A stretch of DNA of 64,000 nucleotides, taken from NCBI RefSeq assembly GCF_004010195.1, contig NC_057752.1, positions 764,123-828,122 on the forward strand. The letters are read 5' to 3'. Under the pieces are notes generated by a model. The model made no database searches. It was not told the origin of the DNA and worked only from the letters and a program-made list of their open reading frames with translations. Origin of the DNA: Chiloscyllium plagiosum (taxonomy: Eukaryota). The position numbers were made by a program, and so were the translations under genes. This document shows, in pieces, positions 3,950 to 4,575 of the stretch. Position 1 is the first letter of the stretch. Each line of letters opens with the position of its first letter.

Positions 3950-4575
3950 TCAGTTTGTTTGGAGGCACTAGCTTTCGGAGCGCTGCTCCTTCATCAGGTA
4001 GTTGTGGAGCGGGACCGTGGGACACAGAATTTGTGGCAGGGGATTGCAGTGTCATGCAACTGGGATGATGTATTGAACAAACCTAGATTGTGAATGTGGG
4101 TTTGCTCGCTGAGCTGGAGGGTTCATTTTCGGACGTTTCGTCACCTTGCTGGGTGGCATCATCAGGGAGCCTCACCGCAGGTTCACTGATGATGTTGCCT
4201 AGTGAGGTGGTGGGGTGTCTGGGGGCGAGCCTTCCAGCTCAGCGAGCAAACTTACATCCAGAACCTCAACCTGCGCTACAAATCTTCTCAAAACTCACTA
4301 AAACCTAGATTGTTGTTTGGTCTTTCATCTTTTGGAATGGGTCGCAGATTTCGGTTCATTGATGTGAAAATCCCAGAGTTTCTTTTGCGTCACATTCTTG
4401 AGATAACTTAAGGTTTTGTAGAAGGAGTGACATCTCAGCTCAGTCAGTGCATTGCAGGTGTGAGGTTGGAGTCTGTCTGTGTCCCAGTCTTGAGTCAGAC
4501 TGGTTCTATTTTCAAAGTGGAATTTACAAAATATCACATGAATTGACTGCCTGCATGTTGTGCATTGTTTGAGCA
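3950..4575. mobile_element. Penelope-like terminal fragment with a nested Penelope hairpin insertion (4092-4300)
   Basis: Hammerhead-like core on the minus strand at ~3970-3998. Nested insert is flanked by the 13-bp TSD AAACCTAGATTGT (4079-4091, 4301-4313) and resembles the termini of the 38337-39105 element. Confidence 0.65.

Follow-up and report, generated by a model that had tools for sequence, protein, structure and literature searches.

A retrocopy with one-strand A-to-G changes in a shark AGAP intron, probably derived from ADAR-hyper-edited RNA of an upstream donor locus

Introduction

RNA edits are normally not inherited. The closest described systems are retroviral: ADAR-type A-to-G hypermutation has been reported in retroviral DNA, for the U3 region of Rous-associated virus and for an inverted repeat in avian leukosis virus (PMC12925331), and ADAR-type A-to-G changes are described in bovine leukemia proviruses (PMC8025556). 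Both ADAR1 and ADAR2 favour U and A over C and G as the 5' neighbour, and the 5' base weighs most, the 3' G being a weaker feature (PMC3113232); in human hyper-editing, 3' G is enriched (PMC4365171). In sharks, the HER1 LINE is listed as the partner of HE1 SINEs; LINEs of this kind recognise the 3' end that they share with their SINE (PMC3747384). A published report of inherited A-to-G changes in non-LTR repeats was not found, as judged by titles and the beginnings of abstracts, with subscription journals mostly outside the search; only retroviral precedents were found in print for ADAR-type A-to-G changes fixed in DNA.

The stretch analysed here (the window, 64,000 nucleotides; positions refer to it unless a contig is named) contains a Penelope-type hairpin for which an initial annotation, made from the letters alone, had proposed A-to-G hyper-editing. 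It offered two readings, namely that ADAR-edited RNA had been reverse-transcribed into the germ line or that reads of edited AGAP2 pre-mRNA had leaked into the assembly. Our analysis makes it very probable that positions 3950-4919 are a retro-inserted copy of an ADAR-hyper-edited read-through RNA, which came from a donor locus and not from edited AGAP pre-mRNA.

Host gene and structure of the insertion

The host intron is bounded by AGAP-family exons on the + strand at 2658-2756, found by tblastn of the window protein P0002, and at 16869-16955. The closest records of the host protein come from sharks and rays, and a protein atlas look-up returned weak PH-domain leads only. On contig C43, a protein kinase gene (593,700-594,800, +), a tetraspanin gene (630,126-634,525, -) and AGAP (654,404 onward, +) follow each other, an order that we take to be like mammalian CDK4-TSPAN31-AGAP2. 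The gene order favours the label AGAP2, though databases name the protein AGAP1-like.

The retrocopy (3950-4919, +, 970 nt) is a 5'-truncated copy of the donor composite, with which it is colinear here and nowhere beyond. A candidate target-site duplication (TSD) of the whole copy, decayed, lies at 3928-3947 and 4920-4937 (+; 15 of 18 aligned letters match, with one 2-nt gap); a score as good is reached by 2.3-3.1% of 5000 random 35-mers. Inside the copy, a family B Penelope-type element on the - strand (3953-4090 and 4313-4601) was hit by a family A hairpin (4091-4300), which was inserted with a 12-nt TSD (4079-4090 and 4301-4312, +). The same 12-mer stands at both donor junctions, and the TSD is inherited from there. 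The left family B part (3953-4090) is the hammerhead-bearing end of the element and is cut short: 26 of 27 other copies reach at least about 20 nt further left, and this end is complete in the donor. In the hairpin, alignment of the arms and of the family delimits an edited left, inverted arm (4094-4172, +), a right, sense arm with the minimal hammerhead (4179-4257, +) and a tail (4258-4300, +) that is unpaired in the fold model. By donor comparison, the right family B sequence (-) is divided into a part which would pair with an inverted arm of the donor (4301-4512; contig 636,734-636,944) and a part without partner arm (4513-4601). A tRNA-type SINE (4602-4910, +), presumably HE1-like, follows, and its 3' tail is the end of the retrocopy.

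A minimal hammerhead core motif, inverted arms and a tail can be recognised by sequence in the copies of families A and B and in the donor; Rfam, run on the donor, reported no hammerhead family and two matches, both below threshold. The ORF end of family A matches Pfam GIY-YIG below the cut-off (E 0.0066), and two pieces of the family B ORF end have no Pfam match and show 28-33% identity (E 5e-6 and 6e-8) to a window peptide which passes the GIY-YIG cut-off. Two further Penelope-type pieces lie in the window. An ORF end bearing GIY-YIG (33476-33936, -) adjoins an 856-nt assembly gap, and a young family A relative (38339-39112) has inverted arms of 98% identity and a GIY-YIG-like ORF end; 29 other top matches are 97-99% identical. 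The copy in the AGAP intron is probably inert. A reading of its left edge, where an acceptor-like sequence is found, as an exonised RNA patch was abandoned given the DNA contigs and the donor.

Extent and spectrum of the A-to-G tract

Recounting the arms 4094-4172 and 4179-4257 gave the figures reported initially: 24 of 79 positions are unlike (11 G-T, 11 T-G, one A-C and one G-A), and 22 of these form G-U or U-G pairs, 11 each way. The folding energy of the hairpin is -124 kcal/mol for the + strand (z -15.6; matched by 0 of 200 shuffles) and -75.9 kcal/mol for the - strand. Family majorities were built from 28 copies (family A) and 25 copies (family B), using columns at least 70% alike. Compared to the majority of the 28 other family A copies, the hairpin of the window has 24 differences, of which 18 are A-to-G; other copies have 0-5 (family A) or 2-10 (family B) A-to-G changes against their own majority. 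Thus, the view that the wobble pairs arose by A-to-G change is right for most of them, but not for all 22. The right-arm hammerhead GAAA reads GGGG at 4212-4215, and the reported destruction of this core is confirmed.

Counting was performed in the pairable zones 3953-4257 and 4301-4512; sites 4387-4388, which coincide with a later insertion in the donor, were left out. On the + strand, 47 of 145 A are changed to G while 1 of 153 T is changed to C (Fisher p 8e-16, against family majorities), so that about a third of the adenines in the pairable parts have become guanine on one strand. Remaining transitions are four C-to-T and two G-to-A. The spectrum against a family consensus, set beforehand as a check, is therefore clearly asymmetric. 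The family B flanks of the hairpin are changed as heavily as the family A hairpin, and what had been judged by eye to be a G-enriched Penelope flank is now borne out by family alignment. The tract is larger than first reported, since it extends from 3957 (first changed site) to 4487 (last) through two nested Penelope-type elements and both 12-nt TSDs; because it crosses both TSDs, the editing is younger than the nesting of the two elements. Tract and AGAP-family gene are both on the + strand, as the initial annotation stated.

To the idea that G is the ancestral letter, or that the other copies lost it by CpG decay, we assign practically no probability. Three sites follow C, and 11 differences with A in the donor and G in the copy are G in the family; being G in the family, these 11 are donor losses, not edits. 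A is the letter of the donor at the counted sites and also of at least 70% of the 25 or 28 family copies, and 40 of 47 sites follow T or A. The family alignments refute this idea; CpG decay could concern a few sites but not most, as was originally supposed.

Presence in genomic DNA

Eight of 24 listed public runs were compared. They are typed 'DNA?' or '?', and contig sets of 2.2-3.3 Gb indicate genomic DNA. For organism A, a 137-nt contig of run X1 (3987-4123, 15 edited sites in the span) and a 96-nt contig of run X3, from another sample and another study (4025-4120, 11 edited sites), have no differences to the window; run X4 gave no locus-specific piece within the tract among eight pieces listed. 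In organism B, a flank contig of run X12 has 12 differences, none of which is at 3957 or 3964, so G is matched at both. A contig of run X9 (3966-4228) has 15 differences and one gap in a span holding 30 edited sites; hence, at least half of these are G in organism B. Contigs of runs X18 and X19 from organism C pass from the unique flank into the element, and 26 of 27 differences of the X18 contig lie left of 3953, so that of the two leftmost edited sites no more than one can differ. The insertion is present in both organisms B and C, and flank divergence is 25/888 between A and B and 42/886 between A and C.

The leak of edited RNA reads into the assembly consensus, the second of the initial readings, is refuted for 3957-4228 by these contigs: gigabase-scale sets from two individuals and two studies have the exact G version, and two further species carry the insertion. 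For 4229-4487 no locus-specific contig with the G version is among the matches listed, which is the one point on the side of an artefact; its overall probability is negligible.

Two contigs (X1 record 1 and X12 record 9) depart from the window after 3984 into a paralogue on C19, via a shared 31-mer. They were considered as another allele, which was rejected since the sole other genomic copy of the 31-mer diverges exactly there. Chimeric contig paths, in two species, are likely.

The donor locus

A 24-nt pattern spanning the B/A junction has two matches genome-wide, the window and C43:635,531, which is 132,672 nt upstream of the window copy on the same strand. The composite at this place (L104, C43 about 635,445-636,436) has three insertion junctions in common with the copy. 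The hairpin insertion of the copy recurs there, 12-nt TSD included and with a similar loop, and so does the SINE, at an unchanged position. The donor SINE has a 7-nt TSD and family B resumes behind it; likeness to the window stops within a few bases of the SINE tail. An inverted family B arm of the donor (636,734-637,104) matches 3953-4088 and 4300-4512 of the window. The SINE TSD, family B past the SINE, the full family B end and the inverted arm are kept in the donor only, which gives the direction from donor to window copy.

Of the 48 family-defined edited sites, 38 are A and nine are gaps in the donor, and one was dropped as an alignment artefact. Excluding edits, donor and copy differ at 76 of 850 positions (8.9%), about twice the flank divergence between organisms A and C, in keeping with an event older than the splits of organisms A, B and C. 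Later changes of the donor comprise two deletions and a second family A insertion, whose hairpin (L104:1782-1875) was inserted after the copy was made. Reliable point variants common to donor and copy number three in families A and B; in the SINE they number 9 of 28, and one other SINE copy also shares nine. The identity of the donor rests on the junctions, shared point variants being few. Another locus (L002) with an A/B junction at a like site was rejected as donor since its family A part differs and the left family B part is missing.

What the initial annotation missed is, accordingly, the two nested elements inside a 970-nt retrocopy ending at a SINE tail, the unedited donor and the derivation of the RNA from it. 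About 19 kb separate the start of the donor from the first AGAP coding exon (654,404), which lies downstream of it. With the edited RNA coming from the donor, the match to the host sense strand is uninformative on editing of the AGAP intron.

Distribution of the edits and neighbour preference

Counted raw against the donor, with donor G-to-A losses included, A-to-G changes are found at 14 of 40 donor A in the left family B part, 19 of 40 in the hairpin, 0 of 14 in the tail and 16 of 62 in the paired right family B part. The unpaired right part has 3 of 34, plus three G-to-A and three T-to-C, i.e., background changes only, and the SINE, at 4 of 51 (3 of 49 A against the SINE majority), is unedited. 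Adenines following T or A are edited at 40 of 72 sites in duplex zones vs. 4 of 50 outside (p 3e-8, family majorities). The inverted arm of the donor extends to the position corresponding to 4512, beyond the last edit (4487). From the limitation of edits to parts which can pair in the donor, we infer that the edited RNA ran past the SINE into the inverted arm of the donor and that copying began inside this RNA, at the SINE tail.

In the main rival order of events, the copy was made first and edited later, edited AGAP pre-mRNA being written back by RNA-templated repair or by gene conversion with cDNA. The edited strand is indeed the AGAP sense strand, the hairpin part would pair in cis, and three other edited hairpins (see below) have no donor within 100 kb, two of them with TSDs of their own and natural ends, features that such an order would account for. 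In 364 kb around the copy, however, the donor arm is the only inverted family B sequence covering 4301-4512, the others having 33 and 46 nt, and editing would be expected at 4513-4601, too, if the copy had paired in trans with family RNA, whereas this part is unedited. We therefore regard this order as very unlikely.

The edited fraction depends on the 5' neighbour (T 21/34, A 20/48, C 3/41, G 4/33; p 3e-8, dropped site included), and other family copies are changed at 2.7-4.7% for all four 5' neighbours. The depletion of 5' G, the ADAR neighbour preference to which the initial annotation had pointed, is thus present. Enrichment of 3' G is not seen (G 12/41 vs. 36/115 for the other three: A 16/48, C 8/29, T 12/38). 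Of the features of ADAR hyper-editing, the tract shows clustered one-strand A-to-G changes, confinement to duplex and 5' U/A preference, and lacks the 3' G.

Changes at the level of DNA or polymerase were weighed as well, i.e., deamination of dA in a cDNA:RNA hybrid, an imbalance of dNTPs at reverse transcription or a polymerase prone to errors (e.g., pol eta). The error motif of pol eta is W-A, and the 5' T/A preference without 3' G preference also suits it. Errors would be expected along all 970 nt, but the tail, the unpaired family B part and the SINE are skipped; transversions at A are near background (three A-to-T and one A-to-C vs. 47 A-to-G). On the side of such changes, deamination of dA by ADARs is described for A-C mismatches in model DNA:RNA hybrids (PMC12925331). 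In sum, we rate an origin of this kind as highly improbable. Reverse transcription of ADAR-edited RNA into the germ line, the first of the two initial readings, is supported by the unedited donor, the confinement to duplex and the DNA contigs of related species.

Other tracts in the genome

A scan of the assembly for similar tracts had been proposed, and searches with edited stretches yielded four more one-strand A-to-G tracts in the assembly sequence (L125 and L106 among 29 loci, L190 among 29 and L217 among five). L125 (C14, around 45,521,100) is a 193-nt edited antisense piece, with 22 of 60 A changed, within an unedited family B fold-back. L106 (C31:44,174,615-44,174,944) is a family B hairpin truncated at one end, with 13 of 50 A changed to G in one arm and the second arm judged by eye; no TSD was seen, and its junction pattern matched the locus itself only. 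L190 (C1:87,990,341-87,990,525) is a family B hairpin (~180 nt) that has natural ends and a 10-nt TSD and is changed on one strand in both arms. L217 (C40:13,806,903-13,807,407) is a family A hairpin inserted whole (~500 nt, 10-nt TSD), whose arms both have A-to-G changes on one strand, namely the one opposite to the tail-bearing strand. Its donor pattern had 4,823 matches and is not junction-specific. For L106, L190 and L217, no donor was found within 100 kb. A further search with edited stretches gave 0 edited loci among 29 fetched, and a pattern needing three Gs matched the window only. A survey of 964 kb of contiguous sequence, with 157 family pieces, gave no outlier besides the four seed loci; such tracts are therefore rare.

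Proposed route from RNA to germ line

The donor would be transcribed from the + strand. It lies ~0.85 kb from the start codon (634,525) of the - strand tetraspanin gene, beside a CpG-rich kilobase (o/e 0.97), and a separate CpG-rich start belongs to AGAP, at 653-655 kb. The simplest source of RNA may be divergent transcription from the tetraspanin promoter, to which we give an even chance. The RNA may then fold into a duplex of ~350 bp with the inverted family B arm of the donor and into the 79-bp family A hairpin, and ADAR would edit about a third of the duplex adenines from A to I. Reverse transcription presumably starts just 3' of the SINE tail, reads I as G and stops after ~970 nt. Insertion in the AGAP intron would follow, with fixation before organisms A, B and C split.

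The last 38-49 nt of the SINE are 76-84% identical to three LINE-type ends of the window (104-148, 39865-39912 and 61181-61218), which we take to be CR1. It is rather likely that the partner CR1-type LINE of the SINE was the copying enzyme; a transfer of this copy by the own enzyme of the Penelope elements is not likely. In its extant donor, its 5' truncation and its 3' end at a recognised tail, the copy has features of a product of target-primed reverse transcription. The candidate TSD of the retrocopy is weak (p 0.02-0.03) and longer than the 7-nt TSD of the donor SINE, so the copying enzyme is not pinned down.

Hyper-edited dsRNA may have been copied back near its site of synthesis, with a nuclear, chromatin-held transcript used in cis by a LINE enzyme, a suggestion which we put forward tentatively and which is rather doubtful. 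The gap of 132.7 kb between donor and copy in a 3.56-Gb genome speaks for it (chance about 7e-5, computed after the fact), as does the edited piece of L125, which has 7 and 5 of 25 non-edit variants in common with its two adjacent arms, vs. 0-3 in 25 unrelated copies. Against it stand the three of three other cases without a donor within 100 kb. If true, ADAR edits would be heritable mutations near promoters, and such fossils would record ADAR activity in the germ line tens of millions of years ago.

Comparison with known systems

With source, pairing partner and edited copy identified, and with the copy present in related species, the passage of edited RNA into the germ line can be traced stepwise. 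As a dated record, the copy preserves the specificity of ADAR in a shark germ line; Penelope fold-back insertions are shown as ADAR substrates, and edited RNA upstream of a SINE tail can likely return to the genome by way of that tail. An A-to-G counterpart of the published APOBEC screens, applied to non-LTR repeats, becomes obvious and testable.

As in ADAR hyper-editing of inverted repeats, dense A-to-G changes are found in long duplexes with 5' U or A preferred; in the reports on RNA, G is found in RNA only and 3' G is enriched, whereas the shark copy has G in DNA and no 3' G preference (PMC4365171, PMC3197674, PMC3113232). APOBEC editing of LTR retrotransposons likewise combines a host deaminase, a clustered strand-specific signature and an inherited copy. 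There, G-to-A changes arise via C-to-U on cDNA, in LTR elements and along the copy, while here A-to-G changes affect a non-LTR sequence in RNA duplexes only (PMC4866542, PMC2873906).

With the HE1/HER1 pairs of shark SINEs and LINEs, the retrocopy has in common its end at a SINE tail which resembles LINE 3' ends of the window (PMC3747384). It differs in that the SINE, presumably HE1-like, carried 650 nt of upstream sequence, i.e., a 5' transduction from a longer read-through RNA. Families A and B resemble Penelope-like elements, as characterised in PMC4209133 and PMC11167929, in hammerhead motifs, inverted arms, tails and putative GIY-YIG-like ORF ends; unlike these, they act here as the substrate and likely not as the mover.

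The retroviral cases remain closest, for clustered one-strand A-to-G changes in duplex-forming RNA were kept via reverse transcription and integration there, too. Those viruses are exogenous and the cells somatic or cultured; the shark copy is a non-viral chimera of Penelope and SINE sequence, fixed in the germ line and shared between species, and its donor is extant.
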